Shown here piece by piece: positions 17,201 through 55,600 of a stretch of 64,000 nucleotides of DNA (within the stretch, counting starts at the first letter, position 1; each line of letters begins with the position of its first letter). The stretch lies in NCBI GenBank assembly GCA_963924565.1, contig OZ004609.1:27342001-27406000 (forward strand). The letters are read 5' to 3'. Both the position numbers and the translations under genes were made by a program. The notes under the pieces were generated by a model, which searched no databases, was not told the origin of the DNA, and was given only the letters and a program-made list of their open reading frames with translations. The stretch is from Ascidiella aspersa. Lineage: Eukaryota.

Positions 17201-19806
17201 TGGTACAGGTAAGTCGGCAAAAAACTTTTGCGCGGGATTACAAACTCTAAAGGGTCGATAAGGCTTGGACGTACGTTTTCTGATGCTTTTAAACCAAAAA
17301 AACTAAATTTGGTAATAAAACCTTTTTTCCGTAAGGTATAATGACGTGAAATATATTTTCGATATTTAAAACAGTGCTGCGGCGTCAAGTCCGACTCCCG
17401 AGCTTCGAGTCCGACTCCGGCCAAATGTTCGATTTCGCCGAGTCCCGATTACGGCTCCTACTATACTGCCTGTATTTCACCCATTTACGTACGGTAACTA
17501 AACCAAGGTAGATATTCAGCAATCCACCCCTAGGGAATCAAACAACTCATGTACATACAATACATGGGTGGAAAACATTTCCCTTTTGCTATTCGATCTT
17601 TACAATTTACCGTGTGGGGCCTTCATAGTTTTAAATTTGGTACTGCGCATGTCGGACTCGGGATTCGGGTAGTCTTTCTCGAGTTCCGAATCCGACTCCA
17701 GCAAAACAAACCAACTCCGGAAAGTCTCGATTCCAACTCCGCAGCCCTGATTCAAAACTTACCTACAGTTTGAATACACTTTAGGCCTACTGGACAAAAA
17801 TATGTTAGCGCTATTACGAAAACAAAACTTTCGTTCCTTAATTGACATTTCCTTTATAACGTAAAAAATCGAAGCGTTGTTTTTAAAAACAAGCTTAAGT
17901 TCAACCTGCACACAAAACGATTAAAAGCAATCAAATCAGTTGCATGGCCTTTGTTAACAACATTATGCAGGCGTTAAAATGTTTTTAGATATTTGTACCT
18001 CTAACCTGAACTTTGATTTGTGGAGTTTTTATACCATATGTCGTTCTAAATATCTATATATACATTTCCAACAACACTTTACAGTATGGTGAAAATACAA
18101 GGAAAATATTGCTTAACAATGCTAAGAAAAAAGTGTTTGATAACCCCTGCCAAGGCATTTATTTCGACCTAAACCAGCGTGTTTGCGTCCACAGAGCCCT
18201 GGGCTCGTCGTTCACGTGCTTCCAGCGAGTGGTCATCCACTGGACGGCGACCAACGCGGCACTGACCATCGCGCATTTCATGTCCTACAACCCGGAGAAG
18301 CTCTTCAACATCACCGAGGGCAAAGTGGCAACGCCCATCTTCAACGCCAACCAGGTGGTGGCCGCAGGTCTGGCGGCCGCGGCGGGCGGCGTCCTGACCG
18401 GGGCGGTTCTGCGCATTGCGGCGCGTCTGGCGGCCGGGGGCACAAAGTGGACGCGCGTGGACGACAAGGACGACTTCGCGCACCTAATGGAAGGACTACA
18501 GTACGCGGACGGCGCTGTAGTGCGCGCACCGGTCGTCAACGAAGATTGTGACGCGCGGTACCGGCTCACGCCGCGCCAGATACGCGTCCTGCACGAGATC
18601 ACGCGCTGCGGGGAGGAGGCCTGCCATGGAAAGGACATGCTGAACAGGCCCGAGTGCCCGCCGGAGAAGTCGTGCGCCTTTCGGACGGAGCGCCCAGTTG
18701 TGCCAACGAGCTCCGAGAGCGAAGCGCCTGCTGATCAGGTCCTTGAAGAAAATTTGGAGCAGAACAAGGATGCGAACGGCGCTTCTACTGATTCTGACAC
18801 AGAATCAAGTGCGTCGCCGCCAGAGCAGGATCGCGGCTATAGATACAGCATACAGGTCGGAATGAAGGATTTGTGGAACAAAACGTTGGGAAGCATCGCG
18901 ATGGCTGAGCCCAACGAGTCGCACGAAGACCCGGCCAATGATGTTGAGCAAACCAACAGCAACGCGCCGCTCCCTTCACAGCGGCTACGCAAGTTCTCCG
19001 CGAGGAAACCGCCCAAAACCAGGAAGGTTCAAAGGTTGAACAACGTGGTCCCGTCGGTGTCGGCTCGCGTCGATTCTTCAACCTCGCTTGAATCGAGGGT
19101 GTCCGGCGGCGATCGTTCAAACTTGGCTGGGGAAGGGTCGAAATCGGGCGGCGACGCGTCCAACAAATTAGATCGTGGGGAAATGCACGAGTACGACTCC
19201 CTTTCTGAGGGCGAGTCTGATCAGGAGATAACCACTCGATCTGCCAAGACCGAGGCCGAGCTCGACTTGATAAGAAGACCAGCGGATGTGTACGAGACCG
19301 CTCCGAATTGGGACGATCAGTTTAAGGTCTGGGTCCAAAGCACAGTAGGCGGCGATGAACATCACAGAGCCCTTTTGGAACGGTACGATTGTACCATCTT
19401 TCCGGCGGGCTGCTGCTTCAGCAAAAACCATGAGACGGTTATAACTGGGGCCATTCAGAACTACGTAAACGAAGAAGAGCACGCCCCGCCTGGCCAAGTT
19501 CTCTTTTCAGGCCTTCCAACAATGCTGGCAGGTTTGGTGGCACTTCTAGGACTAGTGATCTCCTTCGGTGGCGTTGGATTTGCGATTTACCAGCGCTTTT
19601 TCTTGCCGAACTCAGACTCTCTTATATTTCTGTATATAGTCTTGTTAGTTCTCGTGTTGCAACCAGTCCTTTCCACAGCCGACGCAGCCAGCTGGGCTTT
19701 TGCTGCAACGTGGGCTCGAAGAAGAAGGGTGTTGCAAGCAAGAAAAGATATTGCAAAGATGTTGTACGATGATGGCTGTACAGTTACTACTGATCCAAGT
19801 ATTTAG
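14274..19806 (+). CDS. Polycystin-1 (PKD1/PKD1L)-related membrane protein: TM1 + PLAT/LH2 + TM2-TM5 only, ~756 aa, 4 exons
   Basis: Exons 14274-14441, 15962-16263, 17020-17208, 18195-19806 (GT-AG, phases consistent, 2271 nt). TM1 (VTIFTVFDVMMIYVIMSFLAVVKD). PLAT signature YAILLETG...GTTSRVFLRMCG...LFGSNNKDLF...LGSIEAFEVVNDRRGECPPWFLRSIRV...AWL. PKD1-family motif HNWLFPWYRALGSSFTCFQR. Two hydrophobic segments, a long low-complexity loop, then LPTMLAGLVALLGLVISFGGVGFAIY...IFLYIVLLVLVLQP (TM4/5) and stop, with AATAAA at ~19820. The first exon and start codon are the least certain parts. Confidence 0.78.
16330..16512. mobile_element. Fragment of a dispersed element with CAAGTC/GACTTG subterminal repeats
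   Basis: Dense AAGTCA/GACTT motifs ending in ...TTACAACACTG. Similar motif clusters occur at ~9690-9720, 20100-20230, 25755-25945, 36755-36850 and 49990-50090. Confidence 0.5.
17372..17749. mobile_element. hAT-like MITE with GACTCC subterminal repeats (intron of PKD1-like gene)
   Basis: TIRs CAGTGCTGCGG / CCGCAGCCCTG; flanks ATTTAAAA / ATTCAAAA (7/8 TSD match); many CCGACTCC/GAGTC motifs. Confidence 0.72.
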
Positions 19807-20433
19807 TAATAATTTTTCAAATAAACAATTACACAATTCACACTGTCTTTTATTATTGTTATTGTAAGCTGTTCCTGTCTCGTTTCGGATAAACAATTTA
19901 TTTTTATTATAATTTCTTTCAGGACATCTACCATAGCGTGGTTAATATCGGCGAATCGTCATTAAAATGCAAACGAAAGTTTCATCGAATTGAAGCATTC
20001 CTTATGGACGATACTTTTTCAACTTTTTTACGAATATATCTTACGGATGGCGACGTCATCAGTTTTTCCTTAACGTCTTTTCTAAGATTTGTTACAGGCT
20101 TTTGGAATTGACTTGCTCTAATTACGACATAACTGGGACTTTATTTGTTATTTATGCAAGGAGACTTGACTTGGATTTAAGTTATTTTACAAACGCTTGA
20201 CTAGGACTTACGACTAGTTTACAACACGTAATAATACGTTATGGTAAACCGCTATATGTACATAAAAAAAATTCATTTTCCAAAATAGTTATGGTAAAAT
20301 GGGTGGTTTGAAAAATTATAGAGTTTCTTTTCACTAAACAAAACCAAGGGAAATATCACAATATTCATTTATTAGTTGCAAAAGCAACTATAAAATGCTC
20401 ACAAACAAATAATAACCACAAATGGTAAAACAG

Positions 20434-21015
20434 CTACTTCTTTTTCAGTTGACTTTCCTCAAGCATTTTCTGTTTTTTTAATTCCTTTTGGATTTCCGCT
20501 TTTTCTTGTTGTTGTTTTAAATACTTTTCATATTTAACAGGGTTTATGTCCCGCACCACATGAACCCCCATTGTCCAACATTGGTGAGTAATAAGCTCGC
20601 ACATTTCTTTCATTGAAATACTGCGATATTTTAAATTGTCCTCCTGCATTTTCACCTTGGCTATTTCGTAAACATGTTTGTAAGTAATTTTGCCACTGAC
20701 ATAATAAGATCGGAAGCCACCCTTCGCAAGGCCAGCTGCCTGGAGAATCAAATAAGACTGACTCGGCTCACGCAATTCAATCTGAAAGCGCTTGCCCTGC
20801 ACATGTATTCGCACAGGTATAGGAATGCCAGGCTTGTAGTCTTTGGTTAAATTGTTAAATTCCTCAACAAACTTGGCAGCAGGCAAGCCATAGGAACCTA
20901 AGGTACTTCCAAGTGGGGGCCCAGTTGTTGCGCCACCACTGGGTATGATTGCCCTGATGATATTGGGGTGAAATATTTTCTTGACTTGTTGGGTAGTCTT
21001 GCTAAGCTTAGACAT
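20434..21015 (-). CDS. MRPL11: Mitochondrial ribosomal protein L11 (uL11m), uninterrupted CDS, ~193 aa
   Basis: uL11 motifs IIPSGGATTGPPLGSTLGSYGL, YKPGIPIPVRI, GKITYKHVYEIAKVK. ATG at 21015 (MSKLSK...) is preceded by an acceptor-like ttcttattaacag; the ORF track's start at 21021 is a TTG. Confidence 0.92.
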   Translation of the reverse strand: MSKLSKTTQQVKKIFHPNIIRAIIPSGGATTGPPLGSTLGSYGLPAAKFVEEFNNLTKDYKPGIPIPVRIHVQGKRFQIELREPSQSYLILQAAGLAKGGFRSYYVSGKITYKHVYEIAKVKMQEDNLKYRSISMKEMCELITHQCWTMGVHVVRDINPVKYEKYLKQQQEKAEIQKELKKQKMLEESQLKKK

Positions 21016-22700
21016 TGTCAAATTTGGCTGTTAATAAGAATAAGCAGTGAAAGACAATAAGTTAGAACCAGTTTTCTACATGTCTAGAATATACCTAAAT
21101 GAACAAAACATTGTTTCATTGACTACTGCAACTCAGAGTTGTTTTTTATCTTTACCAGTACCACAAACACTATATGTTTTAATCAGAAAATGATGTAAAT
21201 CCCCTAAATAATTCATGCATAAAAACTGTCGGCTAAGTATTAATAGTTATGAGTGAGATGCAATAAACCATCAACTCATGTATTGCATTATAAATAGCAT
21301 GGTAAGTTACATATTAAATTTACAAAAAAATAACTTTAAACTACAATTAACAGACTAACAAGTTTGTCATAAACACCAGGGGTTTCAAAAGTGTAAAACA
21401 AACGTTTTATAAATTGCAGTTAATATTGTTGGTTCAATTTTGGTCAGGTAAGGCTTAAAAAAATAGATCATGGCTGATGTAAATGAAGAGACATTTTTCT
21501 ATAGATTTTAGAGGACCAAACAATACACAAAGATTGGGTCTAAGGAAAATAACCAAATATAGATTAATTTAGGCAATTTTTTTTATAGATTTTGCACAAA
21601 AGACCTACTACTTAATTATTGGATAGACATTTTTATATATATGCAGTTCATTGAGGCCGAAATGATGTACCAAAGGCCCATGGTTGCTACAGGACTGAAA
21701 ACCAAAAGCTTTGGTGCACATTGTGCGCATAACGTGAACTAGGGCAAAATATCCACCTTAGAATTCAGTAGTACATTTTGGAAGAGACAATTTGCCCAGC
21801 AACTCGTTTTTTTGAAGTTCGGTAACTGATCCATTTCCAATATATGGAAGAATGAGCCCGTCTCTGAAGTCTAAAATTTAAAGTTCGGCAAACAGCTATA
21901 GAATGAGCTTGCAACTAAGAAGCTCCTTCTTGCACTACGCCTTAGCTCACAGTGTTGAAAGAGTTATTCAATAATGCACAGTGTGTGGGTTAGGTGTCGG
22001 CTTGTCGCTTAGTTTTTTAGTGAAGGTGGGTCAATTATTAATATTTAATAATATTTGCACACTCCGTGCACATTCTTCGAGCATAGTTGGCCGTAACCCG
22101 TAACTTATAAACAAACTAATTAAAAGCTACACGCTATGCATTAAATTACAACTTCAACTTAAATGTACAACCTGTTTTAACGCAGGTGGTCTTATCACGT
22201 CGGTTAATCAATTACGTACCAACACTCTGGAAACTAAAAAGTTATATTCACTATGGCCATAACCATATTCTTTCAAATATCGTTGTAAATATTTACCGTG
22301 TACATTTTTCTGGGTACGTTTTGCCTCCTACAGTTGACGTATCATCGTCAAAATATCGCATGTCAAAGTCCATAGAAATTTTCTATAGAAACTTTGTCGC
22401 ATGTGTTTGAAATCAGCAGTTGAATATTTTTCAATAATGTTTCAAACCTTATATTTTTATGAATAAATCGTTTTAAATGATTTTGTTAAATGCTAAAAAA
22501 ATTAATTTATATTTCAATAGGCAAATAGTTTTCCATTGTATTACAGAAAAATTTTTAAAACCGATTCCTTTGGTGCGGATTATTATATTTTTATAAGCAA
22601 TGTTTTCTCGTATAAACTTACGTTAAAGCGGTTCGTTTTTAGTAAGAAATTGTTATGATTTGGTATGAAACGTCTAACATATCTAATTAGTAACCAAATA

Positions 22701-22906
22701 AGCGCTGGTCAAGAACCCTACAACATTTTCGTCCGAGGGTTTCTATTGCTAACATTATTTGGGAATTGGGTTAGGGTACGAGTTAGTGTTTGGGTAGTCA
22801 AATTATTATTATCATTATATTTATTGTCCCACATCATTTCTCACTTTCATTTTTGACAAACTCGTTTCGTGACAGTAAAAAAGTGGTAGGATTCTAGACC
22901 AGCGCC
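22701..22906. mobile_element. Merlin-like MITE with internal GGGTTAGGG module, between MRPL11 and MRPL36
   Basis: TIRs AGCGCTGGTCAAGAACCCTACAAC / GTGGTAGGATTCTAGACCAGCGCC; flanks ACCAAATA / ACCAAATG (7/8); internal TTGGGTTAGGGTACGAGTTAG shared with the elements at 34876 and 46262. Confidence 0.7.
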
Positions 22907-23043
22907 ACCAAATGCACTTTACTCTTCTCTGAAATTCAGCAGGCCAGTCGGTTATTGTATAATGACTATTGTGTTTGTGCTGTGATTCCGATTAAAGTAC
23001 AAAAGTATTTTGTTAGAAATACTTTTATTCTTTAAATCCAAAT

Positions 23044-23418
23044 ATGATCGTTGGACGACTGTTAACCACCATTCGTCAAAGTTGGCTTAAATCCATGCCT
23101 ATTCCCAGGATGGCTAAAGCCACTCAGACGAGAATTTTGGAGCCTTACGGCGCCGCGTTGACAATCCTTCCCTCGGCAGGTTTGAAGCGGCACAGTGCGG
23201 TGCACCGACGTTGCCCCGATTGCCGGATAACCCGGATTAAAGGACGCTTGGCCAACGTGTGCGAAACCCACCCAAGGCACAACCAGCTGCAGCAAAACTT
23301 TGACCGCAGCAACCAGCGTTTTCACAGACCGTATGCTTTTCGATGGCTTGATCCTTTTGACAAAAAGTATGGAGCACCGCGGCACTGGGACCGCTACTTG
23401 AAATCTTTTGAGAAATAA
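23044..23418 (+). CDS. MRPL36: Mitochondrial ribosomal protein L36 (bL36m) with N-terminal targeting-like peptide and C-terminal extension
   Basis: LKRHSAVHRRCPDCRITRIKGRLANVCETHPRHNQLQ matches the bL36 zinc ribbon (CxxC...C...H). The N-terminus is Arg-rich and acid-poor, like a mitochondrial presequence. Confidence 0.88.
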   Translation: MIVGRLLTTIRQSWLKSMPIPRMAKATQTRILEPYGAALTILPSAGLKRHSAVHRRCPDCRITRIKGRLANVCETHPRHNQLQQNFDRSNQRFHRPYAFRWLDPFDKKYGAPRHWDRYLKSFEK

Positions 23419-24286
23419 CGTATTTATCCCAAGCGTCTGGTTGTCGCGCCACCGACTTTAGGCATTATTCATTGAAGGGTTTTGTATTTGAAACGCTTAA
23501 ACATTGCAAACAAAATAATAAATATTTGAAATCAAGTGTGCAAGAACAGCAAGCATATAATGCGTTGAGTGGTGTTTGGCTTACTAGGCAACTTTTTCAA
23601 TTAGTATATTTGCAGCACACTTTTCCATTAGCGCCATAAACCTTTTTTATACAAAAACAGAAACTCAGTTTAAAATTAGGCACAGTGTAAGAAAACAAAC
23701 TCAGGTAAACCAACTAAACAGTCAGCAGATAAGAAGATACTTTTGTTCTTTTTCCCGCCAACACTAATCAAAGGAATTTAATTTAAGGGAGGATGTCCAT
23801 CACAGCATAACAACCAGTTTGCATTCTGTGGCAGTGCACACGCTTTTTTTCCAAAGAAGTTGTGCACATCTGAATTGGTAAATTGAATTTGGTAAACGCT
23901 TAAACTACGAAAAAAAGCCAAATTGTGGTAGGATTTCCAACCCAAGGTGTGCAAAAACATAATTGCACACCTACCACCTCAAAACTTGGTACTGCACACC
24001 AGATATGTCAGCCCAAAGTGCCATGAAATGCAGAACTGGCATCACAGTTTACTGAAGAACATAAATTTAGCTTACAACCCACAAACTTTAATAAACTGAT
24101 GCCAGTGCAATGTTAGCCAAATAGAGAAAACTTGCTTTCATAATTTAATTAATTTCACAGTATACCTGAAACAAATATTGCAAAATAAATTATTTCCAAA
24201 AAGCACTGACCAATATCCAAGAGTTGCCCGGCCAAAACACAACAATAAATGAATAACGAGTTCGAAAAACAGAACAATAAAAAATA

Positions 24287-34011
<9,725 letters not shown>

Positions 34012-34875
34012 CACTTTAGATGAGTCATTAATGCACTATTGTAGCTGTGGACCATATATATTTCGTATAAAACACTCCACACACTTGGTAATGTTTAGTG
34101 TTCGAGAAAGCAATCCTGTTTATTAATCTAGGATGAATAGTGAAATCTTATTTTCAAGATTGAAAAGAGGCTATCTACCCGACTAACCAAACAGTTTAGT
34201 TCACAGTATAAACACTAATGGGTGTATGCATAATATGCATAGTTGCATACCATAATTTAGTTGTGTAAAATAATTATTTTAATAAAGAATGGGTGTGTAC
34301 CCCAGTCTGGTAAGTATGACGGATCTCACGGGTGTATGGCTGAAAATATAAGGGTGACCGGGTGCAACAAAGGTAAAAAAAATGCACTTCAAATTTCTGG
34401 TGGACTTTATGATTTTCTGATGCACTCTGTATTGCATATTTTCCACTGCAAACGTATGCTGCACAAGGGTATTAGATATTTGGGTTGCACTTCTAAAAAG
34501 TTGAAAAAAAATCTTGGTGCACTTGCCATACTTTCCAGTGGTGTGTACCTGCTACTGAATGCAGCCTGGATTTCAAGGAAGTGGCCATTTGCCGGTTCGC
34601 TTGAGTATATGCATACAACCATTGGAAATTATACATTGATTGGGTTTAGGGTTGAGGTAAGCATTTGGGTTGATGTGGTGGAATCATTAAATTCAATTGC
34701 CTGAGTTTAGTATTATTGCCATGATTAACTGCCTCATTCAGCTGACATAGCAACTTGCCCTGATTTAACTTCCAAGGGTGTCAAACAATGATTACACAAT
34801 TAAAAAAGTTGTTCTATAAGAACCCATGCAATATGCATTTTACTTGTTTTATATTTATATGTTGTATAAAAAGGG

Positions 34876-35190
34876 GGCGCTGGTCTAGAATCTTACCACA
34901 ACGCACATTATTTGGGTTATGGTGCTGGTTAGCTTTTGAATTGGGGTAGGTCAAGTATTACTATTAAATAATAAATATAACAATACTTGACCCACCCACG
35001 CAAACCTGCACCCTAACCCAAATATTGTGCGTTGATATAATAATTGTTTCAACACATAACGAACTTTATTTGGGTTAGGGTGCAGGTTAGCATTTGGAGT
35101 TGGGTAGGTTAAGCAATATTACTAATTAATAATATTTGACCAACGCTTACCTGAAAACCGACACCCTAACCCAAATATTGCGTGTTAAAA
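34876..35190. mobile_element. Merlin-like element with two tandem palindromic GGGTTAGGG...CCCTAACCC modules; right TIR missing
   Basis: Starts GGCGCTGGTCTAGAATCTTACCAC, nearly the same TIR as at 22906. Two successive inverted modules follow: TATTTGGGTTA(T/G)GGTGC...ACCCTAACCCAAATA. Confidence 0.68.
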
Positions 35191-38100
35191 CTATAAGTTG
35201 TGTAATACATTTACAATAATACAATTTGACGAGCTTATAAATTAAAAAACAACTTAACGTTTCTATGAAAAACTGTATTTATCATTCACTGTAGCAGAGC
35301 GTGACTTTATACAACCAGTAGGCGACGCTGTTCGAATAAATTACTCTCACTATTGTCGTTGGTTTTATTAAATTCAAAGGTTAATATTAATATAGGTAAG
35401 ACAGGATTGAAAATAACCCATTTAAACCCGCTGTAACAGTGTATCTTATAAACAAAAAATCGTGTCACGTCTTTACTATTAACCATTCCAAAACCTTTTA
35501 TTCTGCGCTGCGTTTCACCTATTAAAACTTCATGCGGCAATTTATATTTTATTATATAGTAATATAAAGATCATTTTGTGTTAAATTTGTGAACGCCTGT
35601 GTGAGCCAGTCTACCAATCGTGTTTTTTAACATTAAGTTTAGACGAAATTTCAGAAAATTGGTAAAACCAACATCATTCACTTATATCAGTAGTTTCCAA
35701 CTGGGTGTCATTTTTATAGCTCAAATGCGCTTAGAACAGAGGCGCACAAAACAGGTTTGAATCTTCCAAATAAATTTAACTATCTGTTGAATGTCTTTTT
35801 TGATGTTACTTTGCCAAATAGGTATATATAATCATGGATAAAGAGGTACAATTCTTTAAACGCTGATCTCCAATTGTATTGTACTTTTTGTCTTCTTTTT
35901 GAGGGATGAAATAATAAACGAAATTGCGTGGTGTTCTTAATTACTTTTGTACGGCGCCGCATCGAAACATAATTTTGTGACGTGACGTTTTAAAGTTACT
36001 TCGTAAAATCACATTTGTCCAAACTGCGGCCGTTTGGGAGCACGTGTGGACTACTTTTTAGCTCAAGCACAACATTTAAAAAACTGCGTACGTGGTACCA
36101 AAATTGAGGGAACACCGATGACAACTCTATGGGCATGTCGCTCTATATTTATTCTATTTTAGTTGCATTGATGGGTGAAATACAACGCTTTTGCTTTGGA
36201 GCCGCACTCGGGACACGACGTTTTTGATAAATTTGGAGAGAGTCGGGCTTGAGTCGCTTGCAACCATAAATTTAAGTTGTGTTGATGTAATGATGCGCTT
36301 ACTGGGTATCGAATTTGTCGTTCGAATGTTGGTCTTTCATTTTCGAACGTTTTGGAAAAGGTCTGCTCTGTGTTTAATATTTTTCCATAAGCTGTAATTC
36401 TAGATCACAACATGTGATGCACAGTTAAATATGTTTATTCGTAATAATTTTACAAGTCGGTTGTACTGTCATAAAGAATGATACTCGATTGTAACGAAAA
36501 TACAGATTTACAAATACGAAAAAGCGAAAAGAAATCAAGATATATTGTGCTTGCATGAAGTAAGGTCGTCAAAACACTTAAGAACCCTTATGGCCATAAA
36601 AAGGGACAGTAATGTACAATTGCAATATGGATGTTTGATCAATCGCGTGAAATTTTAGCTTTGCATAAAGTAGCAGTGTTAACAGGTAGGTTTGTTATTT
36701 GATAAATCATCTAAGTACAAATTCGTTTTACAAATACAAAGTAATATATCAGCACCAAGTCAAGCTCCATTTCAGTCTAAGGTCATAACCATCACAAGCC
36801 AAGTTTTGTCTGAATGACTTAAGCAAGCCTTTGGTCCAGCTGATTTAAATTACAGTAATGCAATCTAAAATCGTGGACCTTGAACAGCATAACACCAAAA
36901 AAGGAAACAATTATAACGCAAACAGCTTTGAAGTGAATCATAGTAATCCGCTTTAAAAAATTGCGAGTTTCAGGCGGGGAATAAGAGTTAAAATGCACCA
37001 GTTGGCGAAACAGTTATTCTCTCTATTTATTGAATAATATATTTTCATTTCCAAACCTTAAATTAAAAAAAAAATGATTTGATTTAAAATAATTTATTTC
37101 ATTTTCTTAGAAACGTTAATTTTCAGGCTTTGCCCTAACGGTTAATTAGGCTTTGTCCTTACAGTGTAAAATGCGCATAATAACACTTGCAAAATTGTCG
37201 AACAACATATTTAAAAAAATACTTGGAAGAGCATAATACTTCACTAAAGATTTAAAATTAGGTGTTCGACTAGCGTAATTGGATCTAAGTATACTATTCG
37301 TTATTAAAATAACACTCTTTCATGTACAAGCAAATGTAAAATCTTTTTCTGGTCATGTAAGAAACTATATATTAAATTGAAGAGAAAATTAATAAAAAAG
37401 ATATTATAAAAGTTACAAATTATGAAAATCACGAATGTGAGCATAAAATAGAGTCTAACAAAAAATACTTATCTAAAGCCTAAGTGCATGAGATAAGGCA
37501 TGTTGAGAAATCACGTAAATTATAAAAGGAAATCCCTATATACGTCATGTCATGGCGAGGCACAATGTAACACTGCAAAGTCAACAGTTTAAGGTACATT
37601 TGAACGTAACACAAATTACAAGATAACAATATGACATGGCTACGGTAAACGCAGTTACAATAATAGTCCTCATTCATTTTGAAAAATCTTTACAGTCTTA
37701 AATTGGATGAAAGGTACTCACGGTCGCTATTCCATGCCTCACACCGGCACACATTCCCTTTACACAAAAGGTGTATTAGTGTAGAGCAGTGGTTCCCGAC
37801 GGGAGCCGTGGTACGCTGGGGTGCCAAGATACTATAAAAATTTACCTGGATTTCTAGTTTAGCTTTTTGTAAGCTTTTTGATATTCAGTAATGTGATTTT
37901 TATTCGGTCTATTGTGACATTTTACTAAAGCACATGGCAAAAATGCTACCAAGGGTGCCACGAACTAAGCATAGTTTATATAGGGGCCGTACGCTCATAA
38001 AGTTCGAGTACCAATGGTATCTGAATCGAAAAGTAAATTACAGAAAGCGTATTGGACGCTAGAGTTTACAGGCTTTACCGCATGCCGTGATTATCGCCGG

Positions 38101-38258
38101 CGACGCAGCAATGCAATCCAAGCGACCGATCAGTGATATTGGCAGATTGCAGACGCGCCATAACACACAGAATGACGAAAAACACATTTCGGGATTCGAC
38201 TACTCTTATTGGTTGGGGCAGGTTAGGCAAACCCTCAAAGCGGTTTCATCCGGGTACG

Positions 38259-41200
38259 TTATTGCGTCGCCGGCGTCGAGTGGTCCATTAAAGGCTTTCG
38301 TTCGTCGCTTTCCGAATCTTCGCTCCTTGACTTGCGTGTACAGTGCCTCCATAGCCTCTGCAGCAGTCGCAGGCCCAGCTAAAGGCAAAATATAACGTCG
38401 GGCGTTAACTAGGGACAGCTTGTTTGTCCTCTGCGACAGTTAAAGAATCCATTTTAAAGGCCTTTTTAGGAGACACGAGGAGTTGCAGTGACGACAGGGG
38501 TCAGAAATCCAAAAAGGGGGTGTCCCGAATTGTCAACAAAGGAAATTCCCTTATTTTCCGTCACGTTAATATATAATGACGTCATAAAATAGTGACGGGT
38601 ATGACGTCATAAAAACATTTATTTTAATGACGTTAAAAATAGGAAAAAACTATAATCAGAAAGAGCCAATGAACATTCAGAAAAAGCGAACCTTATGATG
38701 CAAAGAGAACACGTGCGTACTCGACACTTCTGGCGGGTGCCAGCTGCGAAACCGCTTAGTGTGTAATCGTTACCTTTAGGCGAAAAACTAAACCACGACA
38801 GTAAAATATGTGTGAATAATTTTAGTAGAATCATAATTCGACTTTCAGAAGCGCAGTTTGCTAAGTTTCATGCAAAGGACTACGCTAAATTACAAGCACA
38901 TCTTTCGCCAACTGCAATACTTAACGAAGATTGTTTTTCCCAGGTGTTATTATGCCACGATTAGAGCAACATCTGCGCGGACTGTGTGCCAAGTCAGCTA
39001 AAATATAAGCTGCGGTTGATGGAAAATAAGTTGTGTCAATTGCACACTAAACAAGCGCTCTTAAAATGTGCATTTCGAGGAAAAAATGGCGACTTTTAAA
39101 CGCGCACGACAGACATATCTGCTTCAGTTAAAAAATGCCATTCCATCAAATATTTCTGCAGACAGCGAACCGCGAGGAACATTAGCTGCGCCTAACCTCA
39201 CGTTTTTAGAGAGAAAAAATAAAGGTTTGACTTGGCGTTATCAATTTTCCTCGAACACACAGTTGCTATTAGCGGACCTGAACGTATAACTAAAAACAAA
39301 AATTATCCTGCGTTAACGGTCGACCGCTGTGCAAACAAGAGACGAAAAACGCCGGTTTGTGCTTGTGGTTTCGCATTAGCATAAGACGCGAGACCCAATT
39401 GCATCAAAAAAAGCTAAATCCTGACAAATCGACAAAATCACTTACAAATAGGAGAGTCCGAACCCCTAAAACACCGTGTGCTAGTGAAAATTTTCCAGCA
39501 CTAAACTAGTCAAAAAAATACGTACATCACCATGGCAGTTTACCTTATATGCTTAGATGTTGTGCTATTTTTGTAAACTTTTGACAGGCGTAAGCGCTTT
39601 TATTTCTACCACATATTTTCAGAAAAAAGAGCGGAAAAAAAGAAGAAAAAAATTACCAGGGTTAGGCAGAGAACCGAACAAGCACTGCAAGCGCCCTGAA
39701 AGGACATGGACTCGACCAGCACCCCTCCAAGCGTCGGCCCAGCAATGTCGCCCACCGAGAAGGCCATGTTCCACAGGCCAGATACCAGGCCGTACTGGGC
39801 AAGCACCGATTCATGCAGCTTAAGTTCACTGAAATCGAGAAAGCAAAGGTTCATATACACAGGCCGGAAATTGTAGCAATTATCGAAGGCAACTTCTTAA
39901 AACACACTTGTATTTTACCCATTTTACTAAACGTGGTCATGTTGTTTCAGGTAAATGTTTGTGGCAAGCCGAATTTACTGAAAATGTGTTGCGGTAAAGG
40001 CCCCCATAATTAGGATAAGATGGATTGGTTCTGTTAGGCACATTGAATGGCACGAGACCACTATTTTCAACATAAATCTTGCAATACAAACTAAGATTTA
40101 AAGTAGTTTTATAAATGCATAACCTGCTTCGAGCGAAATATTACCCAAATATGTGTTGGTCGATTTGCAACTTATTGACAGGCGAGAGATTCGCTCTTGT
40201 TCAAACAAAAACGCAACGAGAAACATGCCATTCACATGCGTTTCAAGAACTTTGCAAGCCGCAAACGAGAGCAGCGGATTTGTGACAAAGGGCCCAGTCA
40301 TGATAAGAGCACTGCATTCTCGCTACAGTCCAGCAATGATAATTTAATATAAAATAATGGACTGCATTTGGACGATGCAAAATACTCCAAATAAACCCGC
40401 TTTTTTTCTACCACTTATTATTTCCAAATCGCAAGTTGCACATATAATATATTCATCGGGAAAATAAAGCAGGCCAGTGTCAACTGGTCATGGGTTGAAT
40501 GGAGGACAAAGTCATAACTAACAAATGCAGTCGGTAAACAAGGACAACCCATTAAGTAGTGTGCTGTATGTCGCATATGTTTTGGCAACAAGTATAGCCA
40601 TGTCGCATTCTAGCACAATGCTTGGGCCGAGCAATAAAGCAATAAAAGATTTCACACGGATGTCCGCCCGCGAGGCCGCCACCCACGGACACGGTTTAGT
40701 TATTATCAAGCTATAACGGAGACTCATTAACACACACGGTGCTTTGATGTACCAGTGCGGGAAAATTTGCTCGATCAGCGGTACGATGTGCGCACGCGCG
40801 GTGCAACTGACACGCTCGATTTCGTAACTGGCGATTTGTTCCGTCAGCAAAACTTGCACAAGGTAGAATCTGAAATTAAAACTGTGACGCGGCGTGCTTG
40901 GGTGGGGCGAAGGTGAACACGATTGCGAAACGTGAATACGACTATTTCGAAAGCGTACCACGATTATTGGAATTTTCAAGAGGCATTGGGGTATGTTTCG
41001 CAATAGAGAAATAAATGAGCTTGGTATGTGTTTCCACAACAGAATCTTGCCCTCCATCAGAACACATAATGCCACTGATAAAAGTTCCAAAATTTAATAA
41101 TAGCTTAAGAAGCGCACCGCTTCGAACAAAAATCAGTCAGCAAGGTCTTAAACTTTTAATGTAAATATGCATTTCGCCATATAAATAAATGGCACAATCA

Positions 41201-44200
41201 GTTTCTCCTAATTCGAATGAATCTATATAGTTTATCTCATGAATTCATTCGAGATTTTGCGATGACGTCGTATACCAGCCGACGACAAAAACGCCACACT
41301 TGTTACTTAACGGCATTTTATCGTTAATTTATTTTTTAAATGAACTTTCTAAACGAGTTTATGTCACTAAAATTGAAGCAAGTGCTTCATTTGGGGCACG
41401 GTCTCACCAAACTACGGCAATCGGTTAATATTATTAGCACTTTATTAACAGTGTTTGTCAGATGCAAATCAACGATAAACTTGAAAAACAAATTTATAAA
41501 GATTTTTGGAAACTATTTTTTGTTTTCTTCGTTTAATAATAATTAAGATAACGAAGCTGGACACAAAATTTCACATCCGTTCCGCGATTTTCAATCTTTA
41601 CAATTATGCATCCGTTTATATGAAAAAAATTACGGCGACCCTCGATTTAGAAGGGCACTCAGGAATACGCCCGGTCTTGGTCGCTGTTCGTTAAACGAGC
41701 TTAACGGGCCCTTACTTTGCCGCGAGCAGCATCTCATTGTAGGTCGGCATCAGAGCAGCGCCGCAAAACGATCCGTTCACTATCGCGGCAACGAAGAGCA
41801 GCCAGAGCTTTTGGTGGCCCCAGCCAAGCAGCGTTTTGAAGAACTGTACCGGGCCGACAAGTGCCATTCCGACCGCCATCCCGGCCATTCCCGCTTCCAT
41901 CAGGTAAGAGTTGCGCCTGCCAAACAATCAAACTTAAACAACATCGCTTTCGTGTTATGTTTGGGCTTTATATCTGTCGGTCTAAGGCAGTGTTTCTCAA
42001 ACTTTTTTCGCGGCGACACAAGTATTAAGTGAGGTATAACAGCAAAGCTTTGGCGAACCAATTCTCTTCGTTAAACTTTTCAATCGACTAAAAATAAGTC
42101 ACTAGCAGAACTAATTTGGTTCAAATCTGATTTAGGACCAATCTCAATTATTCTAACGAAATAATATACTGCAGTGGGCGACCCAAAAAATTAAACAGCA
42201 ACCCAATTTGGGTCGCGACCCACTGGTTGAGAAACACTGTTCTAAGGTGAACAGAAAATGCTGAACTAAATTAGGTCTAGGTGTCATAACGAGGGTAAAA
42301 TCGAATCTAAATTAGTCTATTTTTTTTAATTGTGCTACAAGGGCGTATCCAGAAATCTAAAAAGGGCGGGGGTACGAATTTTTAACTTAGTGGACTCCCC
42401 GTTTTTCCGTCTGACGTTAATAGCGTCATAAAATAGTCACGGGTATGAAGTCATAAAATGGTGATTGTAATGACGCCATAATTAAATAAAACGCAAATCA
42501 AAAACCGTCCATTAACGTCCAGCAAAAGCGAAATTTTAGACGCAAAGCGAACACGTGCGTCGTCAACAATACTGCCAGGTGGCAGCTGCAAAACCGCTCC
42601 ATGCAATCGTTAACTTTAGGCGAGAAAGTAGACCTAGACCTTGAAATATGTGTGATTTATTTCGGTAGATCCATGTACGGGACTAGCTAAATTACAAGAA
42701 CGTCTGTCGCCACCTGCAAAGGAACATCAGCTGCGCCCAACTCAACGTTTTTAGCGAGAAATTACGAAAACCGCTTGATTTATTGTTTTTAACTGTCAAA
42801 CACACTTGCTAAACAGCCAACCAGAACAAATAAAGATAGAGAAAAAATCCTGCGTTTACTGTCGACCAGACAAGAAACGAAAAACGGCGTTTTGCATTTG
42901 ATTTCGGTTTCGCATTAGCGACGCGTGACCTAATTACATTAAAAACATTGCCGCTTAGGACGATGAGACAAAAACGATAATATCACTAACGAGAGGGGGG
43001 CTGGATACGCCACTGATGTGCTAGAACGTACGGGCCCAATGTGGTCGCATTTGCTTTTGATAACTTCCCATACTTGAACTTTTCCCTGTGAGATTATCGC
43101 TCTACTTAAGAAAAAGTTCATTAAAAGAGAACCAGTTAAACGCAATTGTTTATTCGGAATGGTTTAATCAGATTTATAACACATTGCAAAAGCGGCCAAC
43201 ATGCACAAAAATATGTATAAAAATAAAATCTGTAATTGTTCTAAACTTGGTCAGTTTGTCGATATATTATTGTCTCATAACTTCTAAGTTATTGGCCTTT
43301 GTAACAGATGTGATAAAAGTCTGAATTGTGTGTTCACCTAAAAGTTTTAAGGACCTTAAAAACAACGAGATATTTTTTATTTTTAAAGGTCATACTTATA
43401 ACTACCCTTACCATTTGTCAGCTACAAATCCCCAGATAGGGGTCATTCCAGCGTAAAATACACTGCTTACAAGGAACACAACACCAATCATCACTGGATC
43501 CAATTGAAACTTAATTAAAACAAAATATGAGTTTTTATTTTTTCAAGTTACCATTCATAATGATCTAACTATTATAAAAAAACTCTCCACCCTTGCAGAA
43601 AGTATACGTTTTTACATCACCACTTATGGCTTGTTACAAAATAACAGTATATTAAAATGAGGCAACTAGCCTTAAGTCCCAGTGGTATAAACATGAAACT
43701 AAAATTAACCAGACGATAAATACAATACCAATAATAAATTTCTTAAAAGAGCCACTTGGCAACAGGTTTTCATAGGATGCATGGTCAAGCTAAGATTTTA
43801 TTTTTGGCCTGGTCACCTTTATTTATGAAACACTTACCTCTTCAAACAAGTATTCGGACATGTTAGCAGTGATAAAGCTGTTCACAGTGAACACAGCTAC
43901 AATAATCAAAAACGCAATGCAGGCACTGGAGTGACGCAACAAATAGATTGGCCAAACTGATGCTGATGAATTTTCCACTATTAAAAGAGAAATTATAACA
44001 AAGATTAACAAATGGGGAGTTAAACATATGTACAAGCGGTTGTGAATAAATTAAAACAAATAAAAAATTATAAAAAAATACACATATTTAAATCATATAA
44101 ATTTATATGTACCAGGAACATGTGGAAGAAATTTCCAGCACATTATCAACAGGAGTACTTGTACAGCACCTAGTACCATAAATGGGGTGATATAACCACC

Positions 44201-45621
44201 AGCCTGGAGTAAAAAGAAAACAGTTCGTTGAGAAAATGTCTGTTAAATTTTAGAAATAACTCAAAATTTTTTGATGTAAATGTTTGTTAAAAAACAACAC
44301 TTACTTCATACAAAGTACCTCCAATTAAAGGACCAACCATACCCCCTACACCAACAAGGGCCTCCGAAAGACTTAGCACTGTGATTGCACGATCGTTAAA
44401 CTCTTGGAAAACAATTGCAAACATTGCAGTAAAGGCAGTGTTACTGCCAAATCCCATCAGGGACCGTGAAGCGATACTCAGCACGAAAAACGGTGTTGGA
44501 GCCATTTTATCAAGAAATCTATACACATAAGATATACATTTTTGATTAGATATAAAATTTTATGGAAATAAAATTTATGACTTATCATCAATTCTAGTCA
44601 AATGCATTCAGTTTTGTTTTATATAGCAATGATATAACATCCATATTGTACTTTTACAGTTTTATATAATATCTTACCCAAAACATATGAGAGACCCTGC
44701 ATTCCAAAACATACCAGCAAGCACACAAAACTTTGCTCCAACGCGAACAAGCTAAAGAAATATTTAATATTTTCACCACCTTTATAAATGTTTTACATTT
44801 TATGTTACATCAGCAAATTAAATCAATCTTAACTCACCACACTTCCAATAACTAATGATGCCACGATTCCGCTAATTGAAAATGAAGAAAAAATTAATCC
44901 AATTTGCATTGGGGTAAGGCCTTTGTCAGCAGCCTGAATATAAACAATTATTATTATTCAAGCCAATCAAGTGTTGTTACTATAATTTTGCATGTGTACT
45001 ACCTACCACAACAGGATAAAAAGGAGCGATAGCTGAATATCCCATGATATCATTAAGTGATAGCAAAACCAAAGACAAAAATACTTTAAATTGTCTTTTT
45101 GTATATCCACAGATGAGTTTTTCTTTCTTTTCAGGTAAATCTTCATCATAAACCTGAAAATTTCAAGATGGAAAATAACAACCATGGGTTTCGCATATAT
45201 ATAAAATGTACTTTACCGTATGTGCACAGTCATCATTTGGCTTTACTGTTTCGCTTATTTGTTGGTACTGTTGGCAACCTTCACCATTTATGTTTATTGA
45301 ACCAACGCTTCCATATCCCTCTGAAGAAGCTTGAAGGCAGCTATGTGTAGGATAACTCTGTGAAAAATTATCATGGTCTCTTTGTTGACTTTGATAATTT
45401 TTACGCAACGAGATGGAGTTTGAACGCCGAAATACAGGTGCAATCTTTTCGACTGATGCACTTAAAGAACTGTTACGCTTCTTTTTCTGCTTTGGGATAC
45501 TAATAGTTACTGATTTTGAAATGTCATCGGGAAATACATCCGCAGATTCGCCGTTTTTGTTATCCTCTGAATTTTGTAAAAGAGGTTCAGCCAAATCATA
45601 ATCTTTGTTTATTACATCCAT
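38259..45621 (-). CDS. SLC18B1: MFS-type transporter SLC18B1-like (vesicular polyamine transporter family), 11 exons, ~585 aa
   Basis: Minus-strand exons 45621-45217, 45153-45007, 44933-44838, 44751-44678, 44518-44305, 44203-44113, 43977-43838, 43509-43412, 41916-41716, 39828-39657, 38378-38259. Motifs: YSAIAPFYP, VGAKF, FGFLD, EALVGVGGMVGPLIGGTLYEAGGYITPF, WGFVADK, YGLVSGLWNMAFSVGDIAGPTLGG. C-terminal acidic dileucine-type signal ERKPLM. Confidence 0.85.
38495..39480. mobile_element. Second, longer, degenerate copy of the 42338 MITE family (intron of SLC18B1-like gene)
   Basis: Colinear similarity to 42338-43015, e.g. GTCATAAAATAGT.ACGGGTATGA.GTCATAAAA, GAACACGTGCGT, CAGCTGC.AAACCGCT, GCTAAATTACAAG, TCCTGCGTT, GGTTTCGCATTAGC. 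Confidence 0.72.
41988..42239. mobile_element. hAT (Charlie-like) MITE
   Basis: TIRs CAGTGTTTCTCAA / TTGAGAAACACTG; flanks GTCTAAGG / TTCTAAGG (7/8). Confidence 0.8.
42338..43015. mobile_element. MITE with 8-bp TSD and GACGTCATAA internal repeats (hAT-like)
   Basis: TIRs CAAGGGCGTATCCAG / CTGGATACGCCACTG; flanks TTGTGCTA / ATGTGCTA (7/8). Related copy at 38495; related ACGTCATAA-rich fragments at ~3255-3350, ~6560-6700 (reverse) and ~15460-15570. Confidence 0.8.
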
Positions 45622-46261
45622 GTTTTTTAACAAACTTGGAATTATAAAATGGTGCTATGGCTTTTAGATAAAGATTTGAGCAAATTTAATAATATTCATT
45701 TAACACAATCCAGTAATTATCAGAAATGCACAGATTCCTTTTCCTGCATTTAAATAATTCTGTTCAGTTTTTAATAATTTCTATTTTAAGATACGGTCTA
45801 GTGAAGTTACCAAAAAATTGTCGTTTTTGGCAAATTTATCGCCCTATCTTGGCGTAGGATTTCAGCCGAAAAACTTATGGCTACAAATTATGGAATGCAG
45901 TCAGGCCTCCAGGTAAGCCCCGGCTGCCCCACTATAAAATTTTCAGAGTGTAGTATCTACAGGAGATATGTTGTTACTAAACTGAAATGTTCGCACAAAT
46001 CTTGTATTGACTTTAGTTATCCAGTGCACACACGCAAATATATCAAAATTCTGAAACGTGTATTACTATTTTTCAGCCATATTAGCATTTAATTGTTGAT
46101 GAAGATTTATCACTGAAATGTTAACGATATAAACTACTACATAGTACATACTCTTTAAGTAAATCTGGTATGTATATCAAACCAAAATATAAACTAAAAA
46201 TACCAAATTTTGGTCAACAGAAATTTTAGGTCGTGAATATTCTTTAAACGTAACTATATTG

Positions 46262-46532
46262 GGCGCTCTTTCACTATTGTACGTGAAAAGTTATGCAAAA
46301 AAAAAAATAATAATTCCGCATACCACAACGCATATTGTTTGGGTTAGGGTGCAGGTTAGCGTTTAGGTGAGGGTGGGTCAATTAATATTATGTTTATTAT
46401 TAATAATAACTTGAACCACCCTCAACCAAACGCTAACCCGCACCCTAACCCAAACAATATGGGTTGTGGTAAGCGGTATTTAAAGAAAAAAATTTTTTTA
46501 TTAATTTTTACGTACAATAGTGAAAGAGCGCC
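46262..46532. mobile_element. Near-fully palindromic Merlin-like MITE (GG...CC termini, perfect 8-bp TSD) with telomere-like motifs
   Basis: TIRs GGCGCTCTTTCACTATTGTACGT / ACGTACAATAGTGAAAGAGCGCC; perfect TSD CTATATTG at 46254-46261 and 46533-46540; inner arms CATATTGTTTGGGTTAGGGTGC.GGTTAGCGTTT / AAACGCTAACC.GCACCCTAACCCAAACAATATG. Confidence 0.88.
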
Positions 46533-46993
46533 CTATATTGTTCGCTTAAATCTGAATAGAAACGAAATTAAAGCCATTACTATGCTTCCAAAACAACATG
46601 GTTAATATCTCCGTCGTGAGTCAGTCTGAAACTATTCAAGACACAGCTGGTTTGCCTTACTTGTAATAAACACTTAGTGCGTCTGCAACCCACAGTGTAA
46701 GTGTTAACTTATTATTTTGCAAAGGTTTTTATAAATTAAATTTTGATAAAAGTTTTACAATTCTAAATAAAAACATTAAAACGAATACCACATAAAGTGT
46801 GCATAAACAATTACTTTGTTCGTCCTGTGAAAATGAAGTAAGAATTTTGAACAATTTTCTATGAATTATTGTATAAATAGAAGAGACGCATATCAAATGG
46901 TACCAAATGAAACCAAAACGTACCGAGTGAAACTCGTGAAACCATTATTGAATACCGAATTGTTTTAAAAAATAGCAGTAATTTGAAAAATAT

Positions 46994-47285
46994 CAGGCAG
47001 TCGAACCGTTTGACTTTTCCGGTTCAGGTTCGGTTCGGGTTCAACCATTTTTTCGGAATCCGGTTCAGTTCCGGTTTCGGTTCGGGGAAATTTATAAGTT
47101 TTGGCTTTCAAACATGGCGTAACTTAACTCTGTAAAATACAAGTTGTGACGTCTGCAGAGTAAACCGCTTTTATTACAGGTTCGGTTAAGGTTCATATTC
47201 ATTTAAATTATTCGGTTAGGTTCCGGTTCGGGTTCTTGAAATCTTACAAAAAACGGTTCAGGTTCGGTTACTGTTCGACTCCCTG
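46994..47285. mobile_element. hAT-like MITE with GGTTC subterminal repeats (short copy)
   Basis: TIRs CAGGCAGTCGAAC / GTTCGACTCCCTG; perfect TSD AAAAATAT; high similarity to 53587-54182. Confidence 0.88.
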
Positions 47286-52690: not shown

Positions 52691-55600
52691 ATGTGTGGCC
52701 AAGTTGTGGCAGGCGAAAGCACTATAAGCACTCACAATGGCTGGGTGACGAAAGAAATATCCATGACAGGGAAGACTGCTATAGTTACGGGCTGTAATTC
52801 AGGCATCGGTTATGAGACCGCCCTGGATTTTGCTCGACGAGGTGCAAGAGTGATTCTGGCCTGCAGATCTGAAACGAGAGCGGAAGATGCCAAAAGAACG
52901 GTTAGAAAACAACTGTGCACTGTTAATTCTTGAGTTTCTGCTGAAAATATGTATAAACAGTTTTCAGTTTAAGCTGTACTCAGCAGTTTGAGCCTTCACA
53001 GATAAACGGCGGACGAGATATCATTAAGCACTTCCGGTGCACGACATGACTCGCTATACGTCATGAATTTATTTTATAATTGCCAAGCTGATAAAAACAT
53101 TGTAAACGTGTTTGCTTGGCGTGTTTCATCTCGGCCACTTGTCTGAATCTTTTTAAATGAGCCAAAGGGCACTTTAGTTTTTTTTTTTTTTTGAAATGCC
53201 TGCACTTCACTACGAAGGAAATTTATTTTTTTGCGTGGTATATTCTTAATGGCTGGTCTCTAAAGATTTTTACCACAATCATTTTAGTCTGTTTCAACTT
53301 ATTTGGTAAAACTAAGCGATTTACTGTACTTAAACAAACAAACAAACAAAAACTCACACCACTAGCAGACTTGAAACCGCGAAATCATCGAAATAAATTT
53401 GACGAGAGCAAGTTCATTTTACTAGCACTGTGACAATTTTTCCGTACATTATTGTTTATTTCGTAACAAATGAATTTTACATTGCTTTTGTGTCTTTACT
53501 GGCTGCAACTACACTTACTGTAGTCTTTCTTATTTTATCTACTGGCATGCTTACACGCGCTTGTTGACCCAAAAAGGTATTTGAGCCAGGGAGTCGAACC
53601 GTTTGACTTTTCCGGTTCAGGTTCGGTTCGGGTTCAAGGATTTTTTCGGAATCCGGTTCAGTTCCGGTTTCGGTCCGGAGGAATTTAAAAGTTCCGGTTC
53701 AGCTCCGGTTCGACCATCGCTATTTCAAAACCGGTTCATAAAGTTCCGGTTCAGATACAATATAATTTGCGTTAAATCTCAAAATGTGGGTCGATAAATG
53801 TAGAGAATAATGTTTGAATTGTAAGTCATTTAATCTAAGTTACGTGACGTATTAAAAAAACAGCAACTTATTATTGAAATATCTAAAAAAAATAGAAAAT
53901 CAACGATTTTTTTATTTAATATTCATATATTTTTCATAAAATTTCGAATATGGCGTAACTTGACTCTGTAAAATAGAAGTTGTGACGTCATACAGGAGCG
54001 AACCGCTTTTATTTACAGGTTCGGGTTCGGTTAAGGTTCAGCTACTTTCAAATTATTAGTTTCAGTTCCGGTTCGGCTCCCTAAAATCTTATAAAAACCG
54101 GTTCAGGTTCGGTTACGGTTCGGATAAAATTGACCCAAAACCGATTCATAAAGTTCCGGTTCGGTTACGGTTCGACTCCCTGATTTTAGCTGCATACTTG
54201 TATGGAAAAATATAGTAAAGTTATGCCTCTCAACTAAAAAAAAACGTGTTTTGTCTTTCGATTTCATTATTTTTAAGTGGTACGTCATACATGTAGATAA
54301 GTCGAAAATTACGCTGCCTAAAAGTTTGCGAACCCCTGCCTTGGCGGGTGATTCTATGTTAGGCAAAATCGTACTAATAACCAATACCACTTTTAGATTA
54401 TAGATGCAACTGGGTGCGAAGAGGAAGGGCTGTTAGTGCGCTGCTTGGATCTCTCGTCTTTCGCGAGTGTTACAGAGTTTGCGAGGCAAGTAACCGATAC
54501 GGAGGAAAGGTTGGACGTCCTGGTGAACAACGCAGGTTACAAAATGTGCATAATGTTGGGATATATGCCAGTGCCTGGACTTGTGCGTTTGTTTGTGGGT
54601 AAATTTACGTTTAGAGCCTGTGCATTCACCTGTGTAAACCACTTTAGAAGGGTTGTTCCGGGTACCTATATTTCCCTCTCAGGCTGTTTTTAAAACAAGG
54701 AAGTGAAATCAAGATATAACCGCGTCGGTCTAAGGTTTATAATAATACTTTGCTAGTTGGTAAACACTATTGCGCTCTGTTATAGCAAAACAAATGTCAA
54801 TACAAGTAGGCTAAATTCACAACTGCTGCAAATCAACAAAGGATGTGGAGTAGCAGTCGTACTCTGAACTCGAGACTCAATTAGGGCGGTTTATTTAAAA
54901 TGTGATTCTCGTTGAACTGTGATATATCACAACTGCTACCATTCAACGATCAACGAAGGATGTAGAGTCGCAGCCTTACTCTAAACTCGAGACTTAATTA
55001 GCAATTAGGTCGGTTTATTAGCTTGAATTGCTTTCCGGTGTTATTTTCTCGGTTGAGTCGGACTCCAGTTGCTTTAAACGGCCTTCACGGCCCTAGATTT
55101 AAGCATTAAAATGAATTTAATACGCCTCCATTGAAGCGACGCTCCTTAAAATCACCCATTCACCAAACATTTTCTAACAGATATTAAATTTCAGGTGTGA
55201 TGATGTGCGCCCAGTCGGACACAGAAGACGGATTTGAAACGCATTTGCAAGTCAATCATCTCGCGCCCTTTCTCCTCACTAATCTGCTCTTAGGTTTACT
55301 AAAGGTCAGTTGTAAAATAATATATATGAGCGGTAATGGTGCGATAATGGTTTTTATTGTTGAAATTATAATGGGAAAGTAGTCCACATATATTATGTTT
55401 AAAAGGATAATAACTAGAAAATTTACTATAATTTGCAATTCGTTAGCGGTGTTTAAGGATTATTTGTTAGCATTGTTTAGTTTACTAGATCAATACAATG
55501 GTTTTAACACAACGGATCCTCTGCAACACTTAATTTTTGTCGTGGGAAAATCATTGGTGCTTTTTTTACAGAATACAAAGGGTTTATTAGGCGTTTTTCC

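Follow-up and report, generated by a model that had tools for sequence, protein, structure and literature searches.

The window analysed here, a stretch of 64,000 nucleotides from Ascidiella aspersa (C3:27342001-27406000 of the 308.6-Mb assembly searched; contigs are numbered C1, C2 and so on), carries copies of a palindromic miniature inverted-repeat transposable element (MITE) of the Merlin superfamily at the 5′ end of each of its four CpG-poor genes. Elsewhere in the genome, copies of the same type are concentrated at borders between CpG-poor and CpG-normal DNA, beside gene 5′ ends. This placement probably reflects insertion targeted to the open, AT-rich promoter DNA of broadly expressed, body-methylated genes, and the copies would then not be host switches. 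The observed basis of this reading consists of the element ends, 8-bp target-site duplications (TSDs), a full-length partner with the same ends, the bias towards borders and 5′ ends, and recurrent insertion at the same spots. An initial annotation of the window had left the choice between a promoter-targeting transposon and a co-opted cruciform, telomere-protein-binding or methylation-boundary element. Independent loci (the borders, the orientation of genes and a second set of copies with different ends) support the former; the latter gained no support.

The young copy at 46262-46532 (271 bp) has the termini GGCGCT...AGCGCC and an exact 8-bp TSD, CTATATTG, at 46254-46261 and 46533-46540. It is a near-perfect palindrome over its whole length, with a DNA fold of -102.8 kcal/mol for the 271-bp hairpin, and contains both arms of an inverted, G-rich inner module (46313-46480). 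Its 39 best other copies are 94-96% identical. The terminal inverted repeat (TIR) of this copy is termed Y. A second type, T5, bounds the copy at 22701-22906, which holds a single module arm, lies 138 bp before the MRPL36 ATG and is flanked by a TSD matching at seven of eight positions (ACCAAATA at 22693-22700 and ACCAAATG at 22907-22914). The first TIR base is changed from G to A in one window copy. The termini and duplications of both copies had been correctly described before; the inverted module attributed to them is complete in the first and reduced to one arm in the second, and the proposed single family resolves into two or more TIR types, with other repeats also carrying the G-rich arm.

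Both ends are abundant. The Y TIR has 483+476 exact matches genome-wide and the T5 TIR 1176+1193, and the reversed control sequences have none. With tandem and one-ended copies excluded, an exact 8-bp TSD flanks 65 of 80 copies, while any other length from 4 to 12 bp is found in at most 2 of the 80; among two-ended copies on C1, the duplication is exact in 43 of 53 and has one mismatch in 7. Young Y copies diverge from their consensus by 3.0%. The copy number, estimated from 17 copies in 800 kb, is ~6,600 (95% range 3,800-10,500). At 271 bp, the Y element is short, non-coding, TIR-bounded, uniform and high in copy number, as MITEs are. Transposons of the hAT superfamily have 8-bp TSDs together with CAG/TAG ends, and membership of that group is ruled out by the GG...CC ends and the IS1595-type partner described below. 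By ends, duplication and partner, these elements are non-autonomous Merlin MITEs.

The Merlin superfamily (IS1016/IS1595-related) is characterized by 5′-GG TIRs, an 8-bp TSD, a DDE_Tnp_IS1595 transposase and internal tandem repeats (PMC8101967; this and the other reports are cited from their accessible parts). All four hallmarks are present here, the first in the GGCGCT ends of both Y and T5. The Merlin identity proposed from the window is supported by autonomous partners with the T5 TIR, 8-bp TSDs and an IS1595-type DDE transposase. Profile searches for the IS1595/Merlin domain returned 10 genome matches, with PF12762 above its cut-off, and several of the elements bearing the domain end in T5 sequence identical at 30 of 30 positions to window 22877-22906. 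The top PF12762 matches, on the small contigs C11 and C52, lack a family TIR and were set aside as unrelated, possibly bacterial. One full Merlin (C4:2195647-2208625, 12,979 bp) has an exact 8-bp TSD, the T5 24-mer at both tips and inverted ends of ~990 bp with 382-bp tandem units, compared with the 24-462 bp cited for TIRs of the superfamily (PMC8101967). Its transposase forms an open five-exon frame of 300-302 aa, the exon joins being chosen by enumeration of GT-AG sites, with D147, D211, E245/247 and four N-terminal cysteines. A second full copy (C7:15305970-15321317, 15,348 bp) also has T5 ends and an exact 8-bp TSD. A Y-like Merlin (C4:14666494-14677459) has ends that match the Y TIR at 18 of 22 positions, carries a stop in the matched exon and is 66% identical to the other Merlin over part of the last exon. 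The MITEs are likely moved by Merlin transposases of the genome itself. A further difference from the superfamily as described is the G-rich module, which occurs in the MITEs and is absent from the full-length elements on C4, C7, C2, C6 and C3, even when 4-5 mismatches per 20-24 bases are allowed; derivation of the module from an autonomous element was rejected on these grounds. Upstream of their transposase, these five full-length copies share an inserted fragment of a long terminal repeat retroelement and a hAT-like MITE. Their 382-bp units vary in number, and each unit ends in a TIR-like 24-mer.

The random distribution that, according to the initial annotation, would have refuted its proposal is not what is seen: the placement of the MITEs is far from random with respect to CpG borders and gene 5′ ends. 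A border was defined as a point where one flank has a CpG observed/expected ratio (o/e) below 0.7 and the other a ratio above 0.9. The sample of young Y copies comprised 60 of 61 listed sites in the first 28.7 Mb of C1, with 5 kb on each side (one site, 6 kb from another, was dropped); the background consisted of 16 evenly spaced 50-kb blocks, for which context counts omit copies less than 2 kb from block ends. With 2-kb flanks, 30/60 copies lie at a border, compared with 159 of 2944 random points (5%; block bootstrap 3-8%). Flanks of 1, 3 and 4 kb give 22, 22 and 15 of 60, against 8, 7 and 7% of random points. The other 30 copies, scored with 2-kb flanks, are intermediate (18), CpG-normal on both sides (10) or inside CpG-poor DNA (2). 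The expected enrichment over hAT MITEs, checked as CpG borders on C1, is evident: only 1 of 32 hAT-like MITEs lies at a border (Fisher p 1.7e-6 vs Y copies), as do 12 of 172 other repeats (Fisher p 4e-12). CpG-normal DNA holds 21/32 and 117/172 of these two classes, respectively. The T5 copies are at a border in 6 of 16 loci, drawn from paired TIR matches with some pairs skipped. Among 13 scorable older copies in the background blocks, 3 lie at a border, 9 are intermediate and 1 is outside; the six blocks that are CpG-normal throughout contain no older copy. A tRNA array was left out of the counts. A tRNA-like repeat of ~100 bp is present in 285 copies in CpG-normal DNA of the background blocks, for example at C1:26.2 Mb.

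The genes at these borders mostly face away from the MITEs. Exons were taken from a self-trained coding model, which placed none on the CpG-poor side at 6 of the 30 border loci; at the other 24, the nearest exon on that side is directed away from the copy in 23, compared with 26 of 65 random borders; other score cut-offs give 22/25, 22/23 and 14/16. The nearest host open reading frame (ORF) with a Pfam match, transposon ORFs being excluded, likewise points away at 18 of 20 Y loci (p ~0.0004; 129 candidate ORFs) and at 7 of 8 T5 loci. The distance from the copy to the first ATG of the ORF has a median of 852 bp over 17 loci, in one of which the ORF edge was used instead. Standing copies are accordingly enriched at the 5′ but not the 3′ ends of genes. 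Host genes matched include TSSC4, Roquin, U1-C, DnaJ, Spc25, HSP70, CDC50, DCAF15, a biotin/lipoyl protein and an HMG-box gene. These matched genes are mostly housekeeping in character, but the HMG-box gene is also among them. This single-exon gene, at C1:3.82-3.83 Mb, is preceded by six module copies 0.2-2.4 kb upstream, and we take it to be a likely developmental regulator. The initial claim that copies occur only beside 5′ ends thus survives as a strong bias and fails as a rule, given the 10 of 60 young copies in CpG-normal surroundings and the reach of the HMG-box cluster to 2.4 kb upstream.

In Ciona, methylation occupies the bodies of genes with stable and maternal expression and is mostly absent from promoters, intergenic DNA and tissue-specific genes (PMC3827831). 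Because of this pattern, the CpG-poor stretches next to the MITEs are read by analogy as the probably methylated bodies of housekeeping genes. Young copies show no excess CpG decay (30/1549 vs 88/5625, p=0.31); this and their 3.0% divergence place them on the unmethylated side and later than the border, and by the time they arrived, the flanking bodies had apparently long been depleted of much of their CpG. Target sites are AT-rich and show a weak palindromic preference. The proposed mechanism is one in which the Merlin transposase would insert into promoter DNA that is open and AT-rich and belongs to body-methylated genes with broad, likely germline, expression. The bias would then arise at insertion, with chromatin as the probable recognized feature. 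Older and younger families would strike the same few hundred bases, which would lead copies to pile up and nest. The G-rich module would be carried as cargo, and no host role would be needed.

Clustering could also be produced by self-targeting, in which the transposase binds resident ends or modules and inserts beside or inside them, early promoter insertions having seeded the clusters. Of 73 reconstructed empty sites, 13 lie inside an older family copy, where cover is 5% at 200-700 bp (p=6e-5), and five insertions are found at one 8-mer of the T5 TIR, in different host subfamilies. Another module is present within 5 kb at 43 of 60 loci, the C4 and C7 autonomous copies both have a MITE 0.4-0.6 kb away, and rice MITEs provide a precedent for self-insertion (PMC5172404). 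However, the T5 site partly matches the general palindromic preference of non-nested sites, the promoter location of the first copies is left unexplained, and the border bias is equal with and without an older copy within 1 kb (8/15 without, 17/35 with). Self-targeting as the explanation is therefore unlikely. Because the bias is unchanged without an older copy nearby, the piled-up copies seem to mark a common hotspot, to which self-attraction perhaps adds something. Unbiased insertion followed by selection or instability that removes long palindromes except near promoters would give a similar picture. Standing distributions are a mixture of targeting and selection (PMC7337890), only the 2 of 60 young copies noted above lie inside CpG-poor bodies, and the hairpin of the 271-bp element could harm pre-mRNA. 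Yet copies are lacking mainly from gene-poor, CpG-normal DNA that freely holds hAT-like MITEs and other repeats; promoters would be expected to be the costlier site; and copies that have diverged by 3% already show the bias in full. Removal by selection is accordingly quite improbable as the source of the pattern.

The G-rich module has its own bearing on the question, through a co-option model in which the inverted module would bind a telomere-repeat or G-quadruplex factor and act as a promoter or methylation boundary, near-gene copies being kept. Each arm consists of about seven degenerate, TTAGGG-related hexamers in a row, and its doubling produces the palindrome. As first proposed, it is common to copies with different outer TIRs, being present in Y, in many subfamilies of T5 and in two or more further repeats, and its consensus fits a G-quadruplex pattern. 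The 5′ end of every CpG-poor window gene has a copy (4/4), one copy possibly lies in a 5′ leader, and the nematode CERP2/CELE2 elements offer a precedent (PMC9757741). In a third family, of ~600 bp and with different ends, found near some of the sampled copies, two module arms stand back to back, in a tail-to-tail order when compared with the MITEs. Against co-option, no copy is present at 42 of 49 borders or at 8 of 10 classed 5′ borders. The G-tracts of young copies are unprotected, with 2.8% of bases changed compared with 2.0% at other G/C positions (2.2% in the GGGTTAGGG core), so that the motif constraint expected of CERP2/CELE2-like co-option is not seen in young promoter copies. Among 150 older arms, 95 have one intact TTAGGG, 51 none and only 4 two; a telomere array was rejected on this count. 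For a further repeat that contains GGGTTAGGG, no placement at borders is seen and 5 of 6 sites are in plain CpG-normal DNA; the young copies postdate the CpG loss; and body methylation in Ciona was not determined by the promoter alone (PMC3827831). A role for the host, as a boundary or through telomere proteins, finds no support and is hardly probable overall, although it could apply to single old copies. Alternatively, the module may act for the element rather than the host, by binding a host factor through which the transposition complex would be held at housekeeping promoters; cargo DNA, not the transposase, would then set the target. Such tethering would explain both the retention of the module across families with different ends and the absence of module-less full-length elements from borders (0/5), but we give it little weight.

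Several observations weigh against promoter-targeted insertion. None of the five transposase-bearing copies scores as a border site; other repeats occupy their flanks, one of which is short. Promoter insertions of such length may be purged, or targeting may be aided by the module. Of the 60 young copies, 28 fall outside both borders and CpG-poor domains, and for 19 no exon is predicted within 4.5 kb. Some predicted exons are mis-stranded. The reverse test in unbiased blocks is weak: an edge lies close to 7 of the 17 old copies (p=0.006), and the share of 5′ and 3′ edges with a copy (2/10 vs 1/11) rests on numbers too small to inform. The Y-like autonomous element lacks a TSD, and its TIR matches that of Y inexactly. 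Selection by exact TIR undercounts copies in methylated DNA, but this cannot explain the scarcity of copies in CpG-normal DNA (17% vs 64%). Finally, the evidence comes from standing copies, in which selection and targeting are not separated, and not from new insertions.

The remaining window copies are older or decayed. All five pieces listed in the initial annotation are present in the sequence, one of them reassigned: 34640-34680 is part of a fragment (34577-34700, +) of another repeat, whose G-rich arm is related; this fragment lies in a spliced 5′ exon of the zinc-finger gene. Two fused older copies occupy 34876-35187, with a left T5 TIR, modules at 34892-35036 and 35055-35187, no right TIR and no TSD; related RNA contigs run into a T5 TIR after 35047-35053 (loose ends). 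A decayed inner module without recognizable TIRs lies at 21969-22108 (nhmmer 75 bits), ~0.9 kb upstream of the MRPL11 5′ end. The GGGTTAGGG motif occurs six times in the window, against 0.18 expected (six were reached in 0 of 100 shuffles), and all six occurrences fall in the five listed pieces. RNA reads at the window copies are dominated by repeat-derived reads, and empty sites are not shown.

The four genes are the MRPL11 coding sequence (20434-21015, -; Pfam L11_N and L11), which is CpG-poor, the MRPL36 coding sequence (23044-23418, +; L36), a C2H2 zinc-finger gene supported by Pfam and a spliced contig (23500-34781, -), and an SLC18B1-like MFS gene (43000-45621, -; MFS_1). The last two have CpG-poor bodies, approximate 3′ limits and likely ATGs at 34011 and 45621. 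Pfam agrees with the earlier gene assignments at the level of MRPL11, MRPL36, zinc finger and MFS; SLC18B1 is the top PDB match of the MFS exon, a weak one (E 3.6e-4). A weak Tyr-DNA_phospho match on the first SLC18B1-like exon was treated as noise. As described, the Y copy begins 641 bp from 45621 and the copies near the zinc-finger gene lie 0.6-1.2 kb from 34011. The CpG steps seen earlier by eye at the window copies are also present: o/e is ~0.2-0.6 across most of the four genes (0.16-0.81 over the zinc-finger gene) and mostly ~1 or above elsewhere. The three hAT-like MITEs found by TIR pattern in the window lie in CpG-normal DNA, a correction to the initial placement of hAT MITEs in internal introns.

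RNA reads for MRPL11 stop at 21094. A spliced contig from run X3 aligns at 34399-34781 as a 5′ exon of the zinc-finger gene, and other X3 contigs span 22624-22904 and resume at 22939 in MRPL36; contigs of this kind cannot fix the transcript start. The copy at 22701-22906 is possibly inside the MRPL36 5′ leader. Since spliced contigs reach 34781 and 22939, two window copies are ~100 bp or less from transcribed sequence. MRPL36 (+) and the zinc-finger gene (-) apparently abut or overlap at their 3′ ends (22939-24396), and one spliced contig crosses both. A GC-rich open frame of 598 aa (18010-19806, +) has a strong coding score without a Pfam match, and same-strand RNA reads are found at 19500-20100, within the region of this frame. 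Another MITE-like repeat, with GGTTCGGTT/CCGGTTCAG units, is present at 46994-47280 and 53579-54180. A stretch with TGACGTCA repeats is duplicated at 38574-38917 and 42418-42719, 3.8 kb apart, near a second MFS-like exon (39609-39896).

The distribution of the Merlin MITEs is reminiscent of maize Mutator and Drosophila P elements, which concentrate in hotspots at the 5′ and not the 3′ ends of Pol II genes. Their de novo insertions peak at transcription start sites (TSSs) rather than gene ends, within 50 bp of the TSS (PMC7337890, PMC13228492). These elements belong to other superfamilies, and the present data differ in being standing copies at a median of 852 bp from the ATG, with the TSS mostly not mapped. 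The C. elegans CERP2/CELE2 elements are likewise MITEs with motifs in inverted repeats at promoters. They were co-opted as germline promoters, for which the need for the motif and a binding factor, HIM-17, were shown, and most of their motif pairs lie in closed, non-promoter DNA (PMC9757741). In contrast, most Merlin MITE copies here lie near 5′ ends, which is true of the young ones as well, and no sign of constraint on the motif is seen. Rice Castaway and Gaijin resemble the present elements in their frequent nesting in their own kind; they are plant elements of other families, and the accessible text does not mention repeated use of one TIR 8-mer (PMC5172404). No publication on Merlin promoter targeting or on this family was found in a literature mostly without subscription journals, Repbase and Dfam entries not being compared.

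If insertion is indeed targeted, Merlin would be a further, unrelated superfamily with 5′-end targeting, beside Mutator and P, and its rule would be sharper than theirs: promoters of body-methylated, broadly expressed genes. With an open transposase frame, two MITE families and ~6,600 copies present in one genome, the target choice of Merlin is directly testable, and the system might serve as a promoter-trap. For Ascidiella aspersa itself, thousands of insertions at housekeeping promoters would contribute regulatory variation and would mark such promoters in a genome that lacks annotation.

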